This document shows, one piece after another, positions 48,948-56,010 of a stretch of 64,000 nucleotides of DNA. This DNA comes from Armatimonadota bacterium (lineage in GTDB: Bacteria; Armatimonadota; SYMT01). The notes beneath the pieces were generated by a model. It saw only the letters and a program-made list of their open reading frames with translations. It ran no database searches and was not told where the DNA came from. The stretch's first letter is position 1. The number at the start of each line of letters is the position of its first letter. The stretch spans positions 84,357-148,356 of the forward strand of contig JBKBRF010000010.1 in NCBI GenBank assembly GCA_046292385.1, in the 5' to 3' direction. The translations under genes and the position numbers were made by a program.

Positions 48948-51900
48948 TCAGGCCTCGAGGATCCGCGCGAGGGCGGAGAACTCGACCGGCTTCACCAGAT
49001 GGTAGTCGAACCCGGCCTCGCGGGAGCGGTCGCGGTCTCGCTGCTGCCCGTAGCCGGTCAGCGCCACCAGGCGCAGCCCGCTGCCGGTCTCGGCTTCCCG
49101 CTCCCGCAGCTGCCGCGCCACGGCGTAACCGTCCATCCCGGGAAGGCCGATGTCGAGCAAGACCACCTGCGGCGCAAATTCGCGCGCCACGGCGAGCGCC
49201 GACTGGCCGTCGTACACCACCCTCACTTCCGCGCCCCACATTTCCAGGATCTCGGCTAGGGTGTCGGCGCTGTCCTGATTGTCGTCCACCACCAGGATGC
49301 GTCTCGCTCCGGGCTCCGGGGCGGTCGCTGACGGGTCCTCGGCGTGCCGGCTCTCCGTGACCGGCGGCTCGAGCGCGCCGGCGAGGGCGACCTGCTCGCC
49401 GGCCGGCAGCCGGACGACGAACTCACTGCCCTTGCCGGGGCCGTCACTGTGCGCTGAAACCTCCCCGCCGTGCATCTCGACGAGCGTCCGGACCAGCGTG
49501 AGGCCGATGCCCAGGCCGCCCTGCGTCCGGTCCAGCGGTCGCTCCGTCTGCACGAAGAGCTCGAAGATGCGCGGCAGGTCGTCCGCCGTGATGCCGACCC
49601 CGGTGTCCCGCACGGAGATGGCGACCCACCGGTCCTCCGGCGTCACGCGCACCCAGATCTCGCCGCCGGGCTCCGTGTACTTGGCAGCGTTGGTGAGCAG
49701 GTTCGCCACCACCTGCTCGATGCGGGTGGCATCCACGCGCACGCGGATCGGCGCGTCCGGCAGCTCCACGTGCAGCGTATGGCCGCGGGCGTCGATCAGG
49801 GGGCGGGCGTCCTGGATCGCGTGGTGGACCACGCCGCCCAGCTCGGCCGGCTGGATCCTCAGCTCGATCTTTCCCCGCGTGATGCGAGAGACGTCGAGCA
49901 GGTCGTCCAGCAGCCGTCCCATGTGGGCGATCTGCCGCTCCAGCACCTCCCGCTCGTCGTGGAGCACGTCGTGCGGGAGCTGCCTCAACCGGATCAGCTC
50001 CAGGCTGTTGCGGATGGCGGCCAGCGGATTGCGAAGCTCGTGCGCCAGCATCGCGAGGAACTCGTCCTTGGTCCGGTCCGCTTCTTGCAGGTTGCGGAAG
50101 AGGCGGGCGTTGTCCAGCGCCAGCGCCGCCCGCCGCGCCAGCTCTTCCGCCAGCTCCAGATCCTGCCCGGTGTAGCTCCGCCCCGACTCGGCGTGGACCA
50201 GGGTGATCGTGCCGAGGATCCGCTCGCGCGCCTTCAGCGGCACCACGATATACGACCGGAGCTGCAGGCTGCGGATCAGCTCCAGGTGCTCGTCGTCCTG
50301 CGCCGCCTGCTCCAGCACCTCCGGCGGGATCTCCGCCATCATCTCGGACCGGCCACTGCGGGCGACGGCCGGCGCCCCGTACGGCGAGTCCTGCCGCGCA
50401 GGATACCGGCGCTGCAGCTCGTGGACCCAGCGCACCTTGGCCGGATCGGTGTGCGCGACGGCGAGCTGCCGCAGCGCTCCGTCCTCCTCCACCACGTGGA
50501 CCGAGCACCAGTCGGCCAGGGCAGGCACCATGAACTGCGCCACGGCGGCAAGCGTCTGCTCCCAGTCGAGGCTGGACGAGACGATCTCGCTCGCCTCGGC
50601 GACGAGCGAGGCCTGCCAGCGAGCGGCCTCGGCGCCGGCCCGCATCTCCCGCTGCTCTTCGTACAGCTCGGAGGTGCCGACCGCGGCGGACGCGAGGTTC
50701 GCCAGCGCCGCGCCGATCCGAAGCTCCAGCTCGGAGAAATGATGGGGCTGGCGGAAGTAAAGCGTGATGGTGCCGCGGAGCTCCCCGCGGATGCGGAGGG
50801 GCAGTACCAGCAGCGACTCGATCCCTTCGCGGCGGTAGCCTTCCTGCCGCTCCTTCACCAGCAGCGCTGCCCGCACGTCCGGAATGGCCACCGGGTCCTG
50901 CGGGAGCTGGTGGCTCTCGACCGGACGCAGCGCGCCCTGTTGATAGCCTTCCGAGAGACCCGAGGACGCCGCCATCTCCCAGGCGTCCCCGCCGGCCGGC
51001 AGCCGCCACACCGCGTAGGCATCCGCGGGAATCAGCGTTTGGGAGATGGTGATAAGCCGGGAGAGCACCTCATCAAGCTCCAGCGAGCCGAGCAGGGACG
51101 CGGACCCTTCCACGAGCAGCGTCAGGCCGCGCTCCAGCTCCTGGTGTAGGCGCAGTGCCGCTTCCCGGTCGGCCAGCGCCGCTTCCACTCGCTGGTAGAG
51201 ACGATGGCGCTCCACCGCCAGCCCGCACCGGCGGGCCAGGTCGGAAGCCAGGGAGACGTCCTCCGCGCCGAACGTGCGGTTCGGGTCGAGCGAGAAGAAG
51301 CCGATCACCCCGAGGAGACGCTCGTCGACCAGCAGCGGCACCGCCAGGTAGGAGGTCACGCCAATCTCGCGCAGCAGGCGCAGGTGCTCCGCGTCCCGGG
51401 CGGCCGCGATCCGGACCGCGTCGGTAATCTCTGAGTAGAGGACCGGCTGCTTCGAACGTACCACCACGGCGGAGCCGAAGGCGGCGTTGATGTCCGGCGG
51501 GTACCGTTCCGACAGCGCGCGGATCTGCTCCGACCGCGGGTCCGGCTCGAGCACGAGCGCCACCCGCCGCAGCCGCTGGGAGCCCACCGGCTCGTCGTCG
51601 ACCAGATCGATGAAGCATGCCGAGGCGATCGTCGGGACGGCCAGCCGGCTGACTTCCTGCAGGGTGCTCTCGACGTCGAGGGTGGAGGCGAGCGTGATGC
51701 TTGCTTCCAGCAGGAAGGTCAGATGGCGGCGCTGCCGCGTAAGATCCTCGTAGGCCTGGCGCAGCTCGTCCTGCTGGATCCGCAGCTCTTCTTCCACCTG
51801 CTGCAGCTCTTCGTGCTGACTCTGGAGCTCCTCGTGGGCGAGCTGCAAGCTCTCGGCCTGGCCGTCCGCCACCTGGCGCCGCTCCTCCGCCTCCTGCCGC

Positions 51901-52304
51901 AGCCGCTGCTCGGAGAGGAACAGCTCTTCGCGCTCGCGCTCGCTTTCCTGGAGTCTCGCCAGGCGCTGCTCGGCCTTCGCCTGCGCGGAGCGGACGGCGC
52001 CGTTCATCCGGGAGATCAGGACTCCCGTGAGCGCGTAGCCGGCCAGGCGCAGCCCGCCCGCGGTGCCGGCGAAGACCGGGTGCACCCCCGGGGGGTAGAT
52101 GAGCAGCACGCCGGCGGTGGTGAGCCCGGTGGAGAGGAGGCCAGGCCCCAGGCCGCCGCGCCACCCCGAGATCACGATCGCGAGGAGGCACGGCAGCAGC
52201 GGGATCGGGTCGACCGCCCCTCGGAACACCACCGTGACGCCCAGCGCGAGCGCCGACGCCGCCAGGGCCTCGATGTAGGGAGCGTAAGTACGAAAAATGC
52301 TCAC
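48948..52304 (-). CDS. Hybrid sensor histidine kinase (DUF4118-like TM, 3 GAF, HisKA, HATPase, receiver)
   Basis: FLAMLAHELRNPL, NLLTNAAKYT, GGLGIGL, C-terminal LLDIGLPGMDG receiver. Confidence 0.93.
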   Translation of the reverse strand: MSIFRTYAPYIEALAASALALGVTVVFRGAVDPIPLLPCLLAIVISGWRGGLGPGLLSTGLTTAGVLLIYPPGVHPVFAGTAGGLRLAGYALTGVLISRMNGAVRSAQAKAEQRLARLQESEREREELFLSEQRLRQEAEERRQVADGQAESLQLAHEELQSQHEELQQVEEELRIQQDELRQAYEDLTRQRRHLTFLLEASITLASTLDVESTLQEVSRLAVPTIASACFIDLVDDEPVGSQRLRRVALVLEPDPRSEQIRALSERYPPDINAAFGSAVVVRSKQPVLYSEITDAVRIAAARDAEHLRLLREIGVTSYLAVPLLVDERLLGVIGFFSLDPNRTFGAEDVSLASDLARRCGLAVERHRLYQRVEAALADREAALRLHQELERGLTLLVEGSASLLGSLELDEVLSRLITISQTLIPADAYAVWRLPAGGDAWEMAASSGLSEGYQQGALRPVESHQLPQDPVAIPDVRAALLVKERQEGYRREGIESLLVLPLRIRGELRGTITLYFRQPHHFSELELRIGAALANLASAAVGTSELYEEQREMRAGAEAARWQASLVAEASEIVSSSLDWEQTLAAVAQFMVPALADWCSVHVVEEDGALRQLAVAHTDPAKVRWVHELQRRYPARQDSPYGAPAVARSGRSEMMAEIPPEVLEQAAQDDEHLELIRSLQLRSYIVVPLKARERILGTITLVHAESGRSYTGQDLELAEELARRAALALDNARLFRNLQEADRTKDEFLAMLAHELRNPLAAIRNSLELIRLRQLPHDVLHDEREVLERQIAHMGRLLDDLLDVSRITRGKIELRIQPAELGGVVHHAIQDARPLIDARGHTLHVELPDAPIRVRVDATRIEQVVANLLTNAAKYTEPGGEIWVRVTPEDRWVAISVRDTGVGITADDLPRIFELFVQTERPLDRTQGGLGIGLTLVRTLVEMHGGEVSAHSDGPGKGSEFVVRLPAGEQVALAGALEPPVTESRHAEDPSATAPEPGARRILVVDDNQDSADTLAEILEMWGAEVRVVYDGQSALAVAREFAPQVVLLDIGLPGMDGYAVARQLREREAETGSGLRLVALTGYGQQRDRDRSREAGFDYHLVKPVEFSALARILEA

Positions 52305-52485: not shown

Positions 52486-52590
52486 GGGAGAGGAGAGGGA
52501 TGGGGGATGTGTGCTCGGCGCCGGGTGCCGCGGCGGCTCACGCGACGCAAGCCGCCGGCGCCTTCATCCCCCATCCCCCTCCTCTCTCCC
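52486..52590. repeat. Purine/pyrimidine inverted-repeat hairpin
   Basis: gggagaggagagggatgggggatg ... catcccccatccccctcctctctccc just downstream of the barrel gene. Confidence 0.65.
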
Positions 52591-52603
52591 TGCTTACACC
52601 TCC

Positions 52604-53326
52604 TCAGAACCCGACGTTCACCGCGATCCCGGGATAGCGGCCGCGGATCAGCAGCCCGCTGACGCTGTACCGGTCCCAGGAGTAGGTGACGAGCTGGTGG
52701 AAGGCGTGCCCGTCGAAGGTGGGCGTGACCGACCACTGGTCGCCGAGCCGGATTACCATGCCGAACGGATAGACCAGCTCATCGTCGAACGAGCCGTAGA
52801 GGACGCTGAAGTACGGAGCGATGGGGAGACCCGTCTCCCGCTCCAGGTCCTTGGAGATCGTGACGAAGTAGGCCCGGCCGTACGGCGTGCCGATCCGGTC
52901 CGACGAAGTGCCGACGCTCACTGCCGGGCGGGTGGCGGTTTCCCGCAGGAGCCGCCAGTTCACCAGCGGGCCGACGTCGTCCGCCAGCGGGTTGTACTCG
53001 ATGCCGACCTGCAGGTCCTGGCTCAAGCGGTACATCAGCGTGTTGCGCCACTTCGCCCGGTCGATCACCCCGTGGGGGATCACGCGGAGGCCGTAGTTGA
53101 AGCGTGTCGCCAGTAGGTTTCCTGAACCTCGCACGGAGGTTCCCTCGCCGGGTCAGCTCGGTCAGCTCGGGGCGGCCGAGCCGCCGGGGTTGGCCGGGTT
53201 CGGCGTGCCGGTCGGCGGGGCCGGGTGCTGATGCCCCGCGCCGGATTCGCCGGGAGGCGCCTGCGCGGCCGCCGGGGCCGCCAGCATCACGGCGGCGAGC
53301 GCCGCGGCGGATAGAAGTCTCTTCAT
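52604..53326 (-). CDS. Probable UxxU selenoprotein: secreted outer-membrane beta-barrel-like protein (240 aa, Sec55 and Sec58)
   Basis: GGAG RBS + ATG 53326, signal peptide MKRLLSAAALAAVMLAAPAAA; in-frame TGA at 53162-53164 and 53153-53155; same frame continues into ORF 52604..53134 ending GIAVNVGF. Confidence 0.75.
53124..53142 (-). promoter_or_regulatory. Putative bacterial SECIS hairpin
   Basis: mRNA GAACCUC-CGUGC-GAGGUUC starting 10 nt after the second UGA, with GU in the apical loop. Confidence 0.65.
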
Positions 53327-53424
53327 CAAACCAGTCTCCACAGGAAAACAAGGGTACTCCCGGGATGGGACGGGAGAAGTAAGGTGCCGCGCGAAGGCGG
53401 CAGCGCGAGCCGTCGACGCAGAGG

Positions 53425-53817
53425 TCAGGCCGCGGGAGGTCCCCGTGGGGCGCAGAGCCGGAGCGACGGCGGCTCGCGCGGCGGCACGCTCCGCGGGCGG
53501 AGCGGAAGGATGAGACCGGTGTCTCCTGGCGAGTATGCAACACCCGGCGCGGGCAGGACGGCCGGCTCGAGCGTCAGCCGGCTCCCGGCCAGGGTCTCCG
53601 ATTCGTCCAGGCGGAAGTAGCACCCGCACGCCGGCGCCTTTATCCGGGCGAGCGGCGCAGCGCCTTCCTCGCCCTCACCGCAGCAGCAGGCCGAGCGGGT
53701 CGGCGGCTCGCACTGCCGCCCGTCGGCGCAGAACCAGCCTCCGGACCAGGTCCAGAGCGAGGCGAGCAGCAGCGGAAGCTGCGCCCATCTCCGCAGGCGG
53801 TGGGCTAGGAGGCGCAT
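53425..53817 (-). CDS. DUF2946/CruR/CutF-like Cys-rich leader protein with C-terminal RGPP arrest motif
   Basis: Basic/hydrophobic N-terminus, C-x5-C...CCC...CGC, Pro-rich linker, ends LCAPRGPPAA*. Confidence 0.7.
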   Translation of the reverse strand: MRLLAHRLRRWAQLPLLLASLWTWSGGWFCADGRQCEPPTRSACCCGEGEEGAAPLARIKAPACGCYFRLDESETLAGSRLTLEPAVLPAPGVAYSPGDTGLILPLRPRSVPPREPPSLRLCAPRGPPAA

Positions 53818-53862
53818 CTGACTTTCAGATTAGCCCGTCTCCGACGGGGCCAAACAAGCGGT

Positions 53863-56010
53863 TCACGTTCCACCCGGCTTCGGCGCCGCCTCCGCCGGTC
53901 TCCACGCGAGCAGCCGGAGCCCGTTGAACACGACGAGGAGGCTGGCGCCCATGTCGGCGAAGACCGCCATCCAGAGCGTCGCCGCGCCGCCGAGCGCGAG
54001 CGCGAAGAAGACCGCCTTGATGCCGACGGAGAGGGCGATGTTCTGCGCCAGGATGCGCGCGGTCCGGCGGCTCAGCCGGATCAGCTCCGGCACCCCGCGC
54101 AGGTCGTCCCCCATCAGCGCCACGTCGGCCGTCTCCAGGGCGGTGTCGGTGCCGGCAGCGCCCATCGCGAAGCCGACCGACGCCCGGGCCAGCGCGGGCG
54201 CGTCGTTGATGCCGTCGCCGACCATCCCGACGTGCCGGTGCACCCGAAGTAGCTCCTCAATCGCCGCCAGCTTTTCCTCCGGCAGCAGGCCGCCGCGCGC
54301 GTCGTCGATCCCCACGTGCGCCGCCACCGCTTCGGCCGTCGCCCGGTTGTCGCCGGTCAGCATGACGGTGCGGACCCCCAGCGCGTGCAGCTCCCGCAGT
54401 GCCGCGGCGCTGTCTTCCCGGGGCTGGTCCGCCACTCCCAGCAGGAGCAGCGGCTCGCGCCCGTCGGAGAGGAGCACCGCGGTCTTTCCCTGCCGCTCCA
54501 GGGCACGCATCCGCTCGGCCGCCGCGGGGGTGGCAACGCCCAGCTCGTCCGCGAGGCGATGGTTTCCGACGTAGTAGCGCCGGCCGGCGATCTCGCCGCT
54601 CGCGCCGCGGCCGACCAGCACCTCGAACCGTTCCGCGGAGAGCAGGCCGGCCGGGTCGCCGCCGGTGGAGAGCCAGTGGGAGACGACGGCCCCCGCCACC
54701 GGGTGCTCCGAGTGGGCGTTCAGGCTGGCAGCGATCCGCAGCAGCTCCGGCGCGGGCGCGCCGTTGAGCGCAGCCAGGTCGGTGACCTCCGGCCGGCCGC
54801 GGGTGAGCGTGCCGGTCTTGTCGAGCGCCAGCACTCGCAGCCGCCGCACCTCCTCCAGGTAGACCCCGCCTTTGACCAGGATCCCCGCCCGCGCCGCGGC
54901 GGCGAGCCCGCTCACCACCGTCACCGGGGTGGAGAGGACCAGCGCGCACGGGCACGAGATGACCAGCAGCACCAGCGCGCGGTAGAGCCACTCCGGGAAC
55001 GAGGCCCCGAGCAGCAGCGGCGGAACGGTCGCCACTCCCACCGCGAGCGCCACGACCGCGGGGGTGTAAACGCGCGCGAAGCGGTCGATGGCGCGCTGGG
55101 TCGGGGCTCGCTGCGCCTGGGCCTCCTGGACGGAGCGGACGATGCGGTCGAGCGTGGTGTTCCCCCACGCCGCCGTCACCTCCACCTCCAGCACGCCGCG
55201 GCCATTCACCGTGCCGGCGAAGACCGGGTCGCCGGCGCCCTTCTCGGCCGGAATGCTCTCTCCGGTGATCGGCGCTTCGTCGACCGCCGAGCGGCCGGCC
55301 ACGACCGTCCCGTCGAGCGGCACCCGCTCTCCCGGCCGCACCCGCAGCACCGAGCCGGGCGGCACCTCCGCGGCCGGCACTTCCCGCCAGCCGCCGGGCG
55401 TGCGCAGTGTCGCCCGCTGGGGCGAGAGCTCCATCAGCGAGCGGACCGCATTCCGCGCGCGGTCGAGCGAATGAGCCTCGATCTCCTCCGCCAGCGCGAA
55501 GAGGACCGTAACCATCGCCGCCTCCGGCCACTCACCGATCGCGACGGCGCCGAGGATGGCGATCGACATCAGGAAGTTGATGTTGAGGGTGAACGAGCGG
55601 AGCGCGTAGAAGCCGCGGCGGAGCGTCTCGCGCCCGCCGATCAGGATCGCCGCCAGGGAGAGCAGCACCACCGGCGCGGAGGCCTCGGCGCCGGTGAGCC
55701 ACCCGGCCGATTCCGCCGCCAGCGCGCAGAGCCCCGCCGCCCCCAGCGGCACCCACTCTCGGAAGCGCGCGGCGGGCGCCTCCGACACGGTCTCCGAAGC
55801 CCCCGGGCCGCGGATCTCCGCCGCCATCCCGATCGACGCCAGTGCCGAGATCAGCTCCCGCTCGTCCGGCAGGCGGTGCTCCACCCGCACGTCGCGCTCC
55901 AGCAGGTTTACCTGCAGGTTCTCGATCCCACTGACCTTCGCCAGCCGCGCGCGGATCAGCTGCTCTTCGGTAGGGCAGCAGAGATCCGGAACGTGAAGGA
56001 CGGTGCGCAT
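53863..56010 (-). CDS. Heavy-metal-translocating P1B-type ATPase (ZntA/CadA-like)
   Basis: N-terminal HMA LCCPTEE, TGES, SCPC, DKTGT, SEHP, GDGINDAP, TM8 FADMG. Confidence 0.95.
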   Translation of the reverse strand: MRTVLHVPDLCCPTEEQLIRARLAKVSGIENLQVNLLERDVRVEHRLPDERELISALASIGMAAEIRGPGASETVSEAPAARFREWVPLGAAGLCALAAESAGWLTGAEASAPVVLLSLAAILIGGRETLRRGFYALRSFTLNINFLMSIAILGAVAIGEWPEAAMVTVLFALAEEIEAHSLDRARNAVRSLMELSPQRATLRTPGGWREVPAAEVPPGSVLRVRPGERVPLDGTVVAGRSAVDEAPITGESIPAEKGAGDPVFAGTVNGRGVLEVEVTAAWGNTTLDRIVRSVQEAQAQRAPTQRAIDRFARVYTPAVVALAVGVATVPPLLLGASFPEWLYRALVLLVISCPCALVLSTPVTVVSGLAAAARAGILVKGGVYLEEVRRLRVLALDKTGTLTRGRPEVTDLAALNGAPAPELLRIAASLNAHSEHPVAGAVVSHWLSTGGDPAGLLSAERFEVLVGRGASGEIAGRRYYVGNHRLADELGVATPAAAERMRALERQGKTAVLLSDGREPLLLLGVADQPREDSAAALRELHALGVRTVMLTGDNRATAEAVAAHVGIDDARGGLLPEEKLAAIEELLRVHRHVGMVGDGINDAPALARASVGFAMGAAGTDTALETADVALMGDDLRGVPELIRLSRRTARILAQNIALSVGIKAVFFALALGGAATLWMAVFADMGASLLVVFNGLRLLAWRPAEAAPKPGGT

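Follow-up and report, generated by a model that had tools for sequence, protein, structure and literature searches.

What is known of selenoproteins that carry two closely spaced selenocysteines (Sec, U) or that reside in the outer membrane? The available part of a 2026 review of the prokaryotic selenoproteome, which counts 119 families, gives as UxxU entries a Prx-like oxidoreductase, the HMA-type metal-binding protein NF041115 and an FmdB-family protein, and as outer-membrane entries the GSU2204/MtrB-PioB family and an FCYXU-type TonB-dependent receptor (PMC13188914). The portion available of an earlier review gives the same picture (PMC9312934). Here, we describe a gene at positions 52604..53326 on the minus strand of a 64,000-nt stretch of DNA from an Armatimonadota bacterium (contig JBKBRF010000010.1, positions 84,357 to 148,356), referred to below as the window. 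We hold with good confidence that this gene belongs to a genuine family of double-Sec outer-membrane barrels and that it encodes one exported selenoprotein of 240 residues. Computation brings out the recoding signature, the family, the fold and the linkage to a partner; from these we infer selenium insertion, metal binding, the direction of transport and which metal is involved. As far as the available text of the 2026 review goes, none of its 119 families fits the barrel protein (PMC13188914). We found no description of this barrel family in the literature, and a listing in supplements is possible. We rate the kind of protein, a SelB-dependent selenoprotein, as known, and the family and its architecture as new. 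An earlier note on this DNA, which first pointed to the gene, knew of no characterised Sec-containing barrel of this kind; that statement needs amending, because the GSU2204/MtrB-PioB family and the FCYXU-type TonB-dependent receptor had already been predicted, as the available part of the review records (PMC13188914).

The resemblance to described systems is partial in each case. NF041115, the FmdB-family protein and the Prx-like oxidoreductase have, as here, two Sec residues at CxxC spacing, presumably a single nearby Sec insertion sequence (SECIS), and a proposed metal or redox role, but they are soluble domains with other folds. NF041027 and NF049945 place Sec in a predicted outer-membrane β-barrel, as here, but with a single Sec, in much larger barrels of unrelated sequence. 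The barrel protein did not match the NF041115, TIGR02605, PF00578, NF041027 or NF049945 models in scans that extended to E = 1 for the window protein (NCBIfam) and to E = 0.01 for five homologues; only the fused partner domain described below matches Redoxin/AhpC-TSA. With respect to fold, FapF, the COG4313 channel, KdgM/NanC and autotransporter domains share 12 antiparallel strands with the modelled window protein. In several 12-stranded barrels of this set, the pore is entered or plugged by an N-terminal segment; against FapF and the autotransporters, the model aligns from residue 45–57 onwards, at or just before the UxxU motif. FapF, the COG4313 channel, KdgM, NanC and the autotransporters differ from the window protein in that there is no detectable sequence relation, no Cys/Sec pair and no thioredoxin partner. 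PcoB/CopB is an outer-membrane barrel encoded among metal-resistance genes, with an N-terminal metal-binding extension that, in PcoB, is Met/His-rich rather than Cys- or Sec-rich. The window protein is likewise a predicted outer-membrane barrel associated with metal-resistance genes, but the structural match between the two (Z 8.4) is in the range of generic barrel similarity, and there is no match to the Pfam CopB model. Finally, TlpA with ScoI and CoxB, and ResA/CcmG, are systems in which a periplasmic reductase maintains the two Cys residues of a client in the reduced state, ready to receive copper or haem. The logic proposed here would be the same, with a dedicated reductase beside a dithiol or diselenol site. 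Unlike the clients of TlpA and ResA, the client here would be a Sec-containing barrel of the outer membrane, and in many cases barrel and reductase are one fused protein. That reductase is a relative of ResA/TlpA/DsbE rather than an orthologue, because its scores fall below the curated cut-offs.

Under genetic code table 11, the gene is split into two open reading frames (ORFs), 53162..53629 (−) and 52604..53134 (−), which lie in the same frame. Read through, a frame of 240 codons opens at the ATG at 53324–53326 (−) and closes at the TGA at 52604–52606. Direct reading of the sequence places a Shine-Dalgarno-like GGAG (53336–53339, −) 9 nt 5′ of the ATG. The start codon begins a predicted signal peptide of the Sec secretion type (residues 1–23, 53258..53326, −; MKRLLSAAALAAVMLAAPAAAQA); judged by eye, this N-terminus is signal-peptide-like, with typical n, h and c regions and an AQA cleavage motif. 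It is followed by a Pro/Gly/His-rich linker that includes GHQHP (residues 24–54, 53165..53257, −) and is modelled as disordered, the AlphaFold2 predicted local distance difference test (pLDDT) score being below 50 at residues 16–34 and 41–47. The two in-frame TGAs are codon 55 (53162..53164, −) and codon 58 (53153..53155, −). Comparison with homologues supports reading both as Sec and defines the conserved motif U-x-x-U-P-G-E-G (53141..53164, −), for which the DNA reads AGC TGA CCG AGC TGA CCC and the protein context is GGSAAPS-TGA-PS-TGA-PGEGTSVRGSGNLL. Downstream of the second TGA, 182 codons run without interruption to the C-terminus GIAVNVGF; the predicted 12-stranded β-barrel domain, with its Gly-Phe end, occupies residues 76–240 (52607..53101, −). 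The TGA at 52604..52606 (−) is a true stop, where homologues also stop, with TGA, TAA or TAG. The same-frame ORFs, GGAG, signal peptide, GHQHP, S-U-P-S-U-P and GIAVNVGF that the earlier note had reported are all located where it placed them. Taken alone, the downstream ORF has a GTG start and no signal peptide. This GTG (53132–53134, −), from which gene callers start a 176-aa ORF, is a conserved Val codon and lies in the apical loop of the SECIS-like hairpin described below. The presence of this GTG explains why relatives are all cut at the same point in public databases. Both TGAs lie inside a perfect 9-bp tandem repeat of 2.2 copies (53151–53170).

Searching protein databases with the read-through product gave 1,101 protein clusters. 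Among the best 120 of these 1,101, nearly all are 143–178 aa long and span only the C-terminal 54–73% of the query, so gene callers have evidently cut the relatives at the same place; the database names for the fragments are “hypothetical protein” only. Homologue loci were found by six-frame searches that read through stops. Two in-frame TGAs occur in 11 of 17 match rows from 41 relatives, and exactly two occur in 62 of 95 match rows from 401 genomes of the phylum, 68 of which contain a match. The pattern is far beyond chance. Forty loci (L020–L059) were translated. Thirty-three of them have the motif [VAL]P[STPA]-U-x-x-U-PGEG; the others are a CxxU form (C-P-G-U-PGEG, L024), a CxxC form (L033), a UxxU paralogue (L036), a locus cut by a contig end (L023) and three weak matches without the motif. 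A cross-phylum scan with one genome per species yielded at least 598 matching stretches, and the best 80 were translated: 70 are UxxU (64 by pattern and 6 by eye), 9 are CxxU and 1 is cut by a contig end. These 80 come from Armatimonadota, Candidatus Xenobia/Vulcanimicrobiota, Pyrinomonadaceae and other Acidobacteriota, Verrucomicrobiota, Planctomycetota and metagenome-assembled genomes of Burkholderiales. Three of the 80 duplicate earlier loci. Once duplicates are set aside, 111 distinct loci of the PGEG type are left, and every one of them has TGA at the second position; at the first position, 101 have TGA and 10 have Cys (L024 and nine cross-phylum loci). Neither TAA, TAG nor any residue other than Sec or Cys (TGC/TGT) was seen at the two codons in the translated homologues. 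Upstream of the motif, most of 35 motif-bearing loci open, in frame, with a hydrophobic stretch that looks by eye like a signal peptide. The earlier note had suggested comparing both these codons and the upstream segment, and had argued that two independent nonsense mutations, both UGA and at CxxC spacing, would be improbable; the homologues agree with it in each respect, since UGA pairs at this spacing are kept in several phyla.

Forms with Cys extend the series. A sister clade with the architecture signal peptide (SP)-YHS-YHS-APT-C-AG-C-AGEA-barrel is CxxC (L033, L060–L066), as are two shorter forms (L069, L070), and there is one UxxC form (L067). A more distant paralogue clade has SAPP-U-PL-U-PASGYSAQSG or C-PL-U (L036, the second hit in L071, L072, L073 and L067b, with CxxU in L073 and L067b). 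This clade forms a second subfamily with Sec within the superfamily, and it adjoins the main form in genome G300.

Could the pair of TGAs be an artefact? The earlier note had raised the possibility that the 9-bp ccgagctga unit was duplicated during assembly. The nearest homologue, at 73% identity, has the same U-P-S-U on a different, imperfect DNA repeat, and other homologues have U-PG-U, U-TG-U, U-PL-U or U-PV-U. In addition, independent soil metagenome contigs cross the site without gaps and keep both TGAs. One (X4 record 15) covers 52934–53338; another (X2 record 7) covers 53135–53213, and the only nearby differences, at 53168 and 53174, are both synonymous on the minus strand. The distinct DNA of the 73% homologue and the independent contigs rule out an assembly duplication. 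A pseudogene or chance stops are ruled out by conservation of the TGAs in the phylum and cross-phylum scans. A contig from an RNA library (X7) corresponds to 52789–53123 only and is silent on read-through.

A SECIS-like hairpin, GAACCUC-CGUGC-GAGGUUC (53124..53142, −), starts 10 nt after the second UGA and has comparative support. Ungapped 57-nt alignments, in which the first codon is the first TGA, show hairpins in two registers. The first (i+j=72; 29 sequences) pairs columns 27–34 with 38–45 around a G-rich 3-nt loop, and was found by RNAalifold unaided. Its cells are paired in 92.7% of cases, as compared with 72.3% in shuffled alignments (0 of 500 reach the observed value) and 45–59% when the partner is slid; the covariation score is 0.619 versus 0.258, with compensatory changes in five of eight pairs. 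The second register (i+j=64), which is that of the window, pairs columns 23–29 with 35–41 around a CGUGC or CGUGA loop in 78 sequences that were not pre-selected for register. Here, 84.4% of cells are paired, versus 74.7% after shuffling (again 0 of 500 reach it) and 23–62% with the partner slid, and the covariation score is 0.313 versus 0.133. Pair 24–40 of this register is UA in 30 sequences, CG in 28, AU in 6 and UG in 6; in Pyrinomonadaceae, the covariation at this pair links a synonymous Gly third position with a Thr/Ala first position. Across homologues, the loop is CGUGC, CGUGA, GUG, GGU or GGG, located 10–16 nt after the second UGA.

The Sec machinery, which the earlier note had proposed checking for, is present in the genome: selB (367 bits), selA (578 bits), selD (362 bits) and tRNA-Sec (66.6 bits) all score above their curated cut-offs, and selD has an in-frame TGA of its own. 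selA, selD and tRNA-Sec form a cluster at C11:87438-90122. selA is present in all five genomes tested that have UxxU forms. Of five genomes that showed Cys forms only in the search of the phylum, three have selA and two, which are 98% complete, do not. At least six TlpA/Redoxin-like matches with one in-frame TGA occur elsewhere in the genome (contigs C18, C6, C17, C4, C14 and C22). These are probably known families of Sec-containing thiol-disulfide oxidoreductases, and the genome looks rich in selenoproteins.

The prediction of an outer-membrane β-barrel, also made in the earlier note, holds up in structural modelling. AlphaFold2, run on a 61-sequence alignment with TGA read as Cys, gives a 12-stranded model with a mean pLDDT of 82.8 (above 90 over residues 80–240) and a predicted template modelling score of 0.75. 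The top Foldseek matches are FapF, OmpG, NanC and KdgM. VIA-align matches the model to FapF (5o65, Z 16.1), the COG4313 channel (4rl8, Z 15.7), KdgM (4pr7, Z 15.6), the autotransporter barrels EstA, NalP and Hbp (Z 13.5–15.2), LpxR (Z 14.5) and NanC (2wjr, Z 13.6), and also to PcoB (7pge, Z 8.4, root-mean-square deviation [rmsd] 4.8). For the 12-stranded barrels, the structural alignments have an rmsd of 2.3–2.9 over 151–167 residues, with 5–17% identity. The terminal Phe is at least 90% conserved (alignment A4), which fits the signal recognised by the β-barrel assembly machinery. No Pfam or NCBIfam model for the barrel matched the window protein or five homologues from other lineages; the sole sub-threshold match is to YjbH (E 0.01–0.02, 14–15 bits against a cut-off of 24). 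Because the model matches barrels and no Pfam or NCBIfam model fits, the protein would represent a new sequence family with a 12-stranded outer-membrane fold.

What does the barrel work with? In other lineages, the position of the linker is taken by a YHS domain, a TlpA-like thioredoxin domain or both. Within the phylum, a Redoxin/AhpC-TSA/thioredoxin gene on the same strand, often with a preceding YHS domain, adjoins 18 of 33 loci; the second round of the domain scan behind this count took 63 of the 85 remaining flanking ORFs. Among the best 80 of the cross-phylum stretches, 61 have a TlpA-like match within 3 kb, and the domain is fused in frame at 52 of 77 loci. The order in the fusions is signal peptide, Cys-rich or YHS domain, thioredoxin (WxxxCxPC), linker, VPS-U-x-x-U-PGEG and barrel. 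Pfam and NCBIfam confirm the fused domain on L092, L078, L084 and L110, the best models being ResA, TlpA and DsbE, all below curated cut-offs; YHS domains are fused in L021, L025 and L033. Proteins of the ResA/TlpA/DsbE type are reductases that work in the periplasm, where they maintain the Cys pair of a client in reduced form. In the fusion, UxxU would be periplasmic and would lie after the reductase and ahead of the first barrel strand, and this domain order is the strongest clue to function.

Metal-related genes lie next to the barrel gene in the window. A Zn/Cd/Pb-type P1B heavy-metal ATPase is encoded upstream at 53863..56010 (−), with E1-E2_ATPase, HMA and Hydrolase domains and matches to TIGR01525 (586 bits) and TIGR01512 (515 bits). 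Between it and the barrel gene is a 130-aa Cys-rich ORF (53425..53817, −) with the motif GGW[FY]CA.GRQCEP..CCCG..CGCY[FY] and no Pfam or NCBIfam match. The motif recurs in a syntenic ORF of genome G003 (L022:2-670), just upstream of the YHS-TlpA-like and barrel genes there, and from its sequence the ORF may be a small metal-binding partner. ATPase, ArsR-type, RND or DUF305 genes also flank two other loci (L045 and L052), and an ATPase flanks L079. On the other side of the gene, 18 nt past the barrel stop, is a 22-nt inverted repeat (52488–52509 / 52565–52586; 95% complementary, with 55 nt between the arms), close to purine-rich tandem repeats; it may act as a terminator, or it may be a repeat element. 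A large hybrid histidine kinase is encoded directly downstream, on the strand of the barrel gene (48948–52304, −), with DUF4118, three GAF, HisKA, HATPase_c and receiver domains.

How might the protein be made and used? SelB and tRNA-Sec would decode both UGAs as Sec, directed by the hairpin 10 nt past the second. The mature protein would be a 12-stranded outer-membrane barrel with a periplasmic N-terminal extension that carries U-x-x-U-PGEG before the first strand. The diselenol (or selenol/thiol) pair would sit where the channel opens to the periplasm, and would there bind a thiophilic metal or perform redox chemistry; the selenol pair could cycle between diselenide and diselenol, with the TlpA-like domain holding it reduced in the oxidising periplasm. 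The barrel would then serve as a route across the outer membrane or as an anchor in it, and the neighbouring Zn/Cd/Pb-type P1B ATPase suggests the handling of metal that has been pumped into the periplasm. The 240-residue exported double-Sec protein that the earlier note predicted draws computational support from TGA conservation, Cys homologues, the hairpin, the Sec machinery and the fold. Its soft-metal or redox site is something that we, too, infer: the link to the ATPase is rare among homologues, and the conserved partner is the TlpA-like thioredoxin. We put a role in metal trafficking at about even odds and consider a purely redox role rather less likely.

In that redox alternative, the double-Sec barrel is real and its job is that of a redox relay with the TlpA-like domain, not metal trafficking. 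The conserved partner is indeed a ResA/TlpA/DsbE-type reductase, metal-transport neighbours are rare, and, according to the available part of the 2026 review, the majority of the selenoproteins known so far are UxxC or CxxU redox enzymes (PMC13188914). Such a relay might reduce peroxides, selenite, tellurite or envelope disulfides, or pass reducing equivalents through the barrel, although we would name these tasks only tentatively. Three points speak against a relay without metal: YHS, a metal-binding domain according to Pfam, recurs both in the partner, whether fused or adjacent, and in the CxxC clade; P1B ATPase, RND or ArsR-type genes lie beside some copies; and ScoI and CoxB, the known clients of TlpA, are copper sites in their own right. 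A different kind of doubt concerns this particular copy, which could be a decaying or non-functional member of the family, since it lacks the TlpA-like partner and the YHS domain: no partner gene adjoins it, and none in the genome is a close orthologue of the partner. Decay is improbable given that the 240-codon frame is intact and retains the signal peptide, motif, hairpin and terminal Phe, that about 20 other loci share the same short form, and that related strains in other metagenomes differ near the motif in synonymous changes only. The RNA-library contig is weak evidence in the same direction.

Two further alternatives deny that the TGAs are read as Sec. If they were true stops, a short secreted peptide (elsewhere, a TlpA-like protein) would end at the first, and the barrel would be translated from the GTG at 53134. 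This would account for the 143–178-aa products in databases and for the conservation of GTG at the start of the short ORF. However, an outer-membrane barrel made from the short ORF would have no signal peptide, the GTG is a conserved Val inside a covarying hairpin loop, and the PGEG segment between the TGAs and the GTG is conserved as protein. Moreover, homologues have Cys for either TGA, replacement by Cys gives one uninterrupted ORF, and the TGA pair is exactly three codons apart and kept across phyla. We regard true stops as very improbable. Slightly more improbable still is that the TGAs are read as another amino acid, such as Trp, through a variant code or near-cognate suppression. A database protein, P0093, does have W at both positions; the metagenome scan did not recover the contig of P0093 itself, but the closest DNA relatives of this protein (63–71% identity) have TGA at both, and the W residues are probably the product of a code-4 gene call. 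In homologues, TGA alternates with Cys rather than with Trp; TGA is also the terminal stop of this gene and of many homologues, and the gene has a SECIS-like hairpin in a genome that encodes the full Sec machinery.

There are also observations that weigh against our interpretation of a double-Sec outer-membrane barrel with a metal or redox partner. The case is computational, and selenium insertion, export and membrane location are predictions. Support for the hairpin in the window is comparative only: its folding energy gives no signal against shuffled sequences (z 0.13), and an Rfam scan of 52500–53900 produced chance-level matches only (E 2.4–8.8). This single hairpin must serve two UGAs that are 9 nt apart, the first of them 19 nt from the stem. 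In E. coli, the optimum distance from UGA to stem is 11 nt, and the first UGA of the window is farther away. The N-terminal 70 residues, and with them the place of UxxU relative to the pore, are modelled with low confidence. No TlpA-like gene is found beside the barrel gene in the window, and the best TlpA-like match in the whole genome is only 36% identical to the G003 partner. With regard to metals, a terminator-like hairpin with a T-rich tail (53385–53402, −) separates the ATPase and Cys-rich block from the barrel gene, which may therefore have its own transcript, and adjacency to an ATPase is rare (1 of 80 cross-phylum loci and about 3 of 34 loci, namely the window, L045 and L052). An operon link between the barrel and the ATPase is weakened by this hairpin and by that rarity.

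What would the double-Sec barrel mean for the selenoproteome and for the bacteria that encode it? If confirmed, it would add a large new family to the prokaryotic selenoproteome (at least 598 stretches and 1,101 protein clusters), with two selenocysteines in an outer-membrane protein tied to a periplasmic reductase dedicated to it. The family also brings to light an error that annotation makes systematically, in which genes are split at the TGAs, the barrel is recorded as a “hypothetical protein” without a signal peptide, and the fused thioredoxin is recorded as a separate gene. The family is a tractable model for how one SECIS serves two close UGAs and for why Sec is preferred over Cys in the oxidising periplasm, and it may point to a new way in which thiophilic metals are handled at the outer membrane. 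More speculatively, and we consider this possible rather than likely, the protein may be the first representative of an outer-membrane system for transport or redox chemistry that depends on selenium, in which a diselenol/diselenide pair on the N-terminal segment of the 12-stranded barrel acts as a selectivity site for soft metals or as a redox gate of the pore and is recycled by a tethered TlpA-like reductase that has a YHS metal-binding domain. If this is true, Sec chemistry would take place at or across the outer membrane in several widespread phyla of soil and freshwater bacteria.

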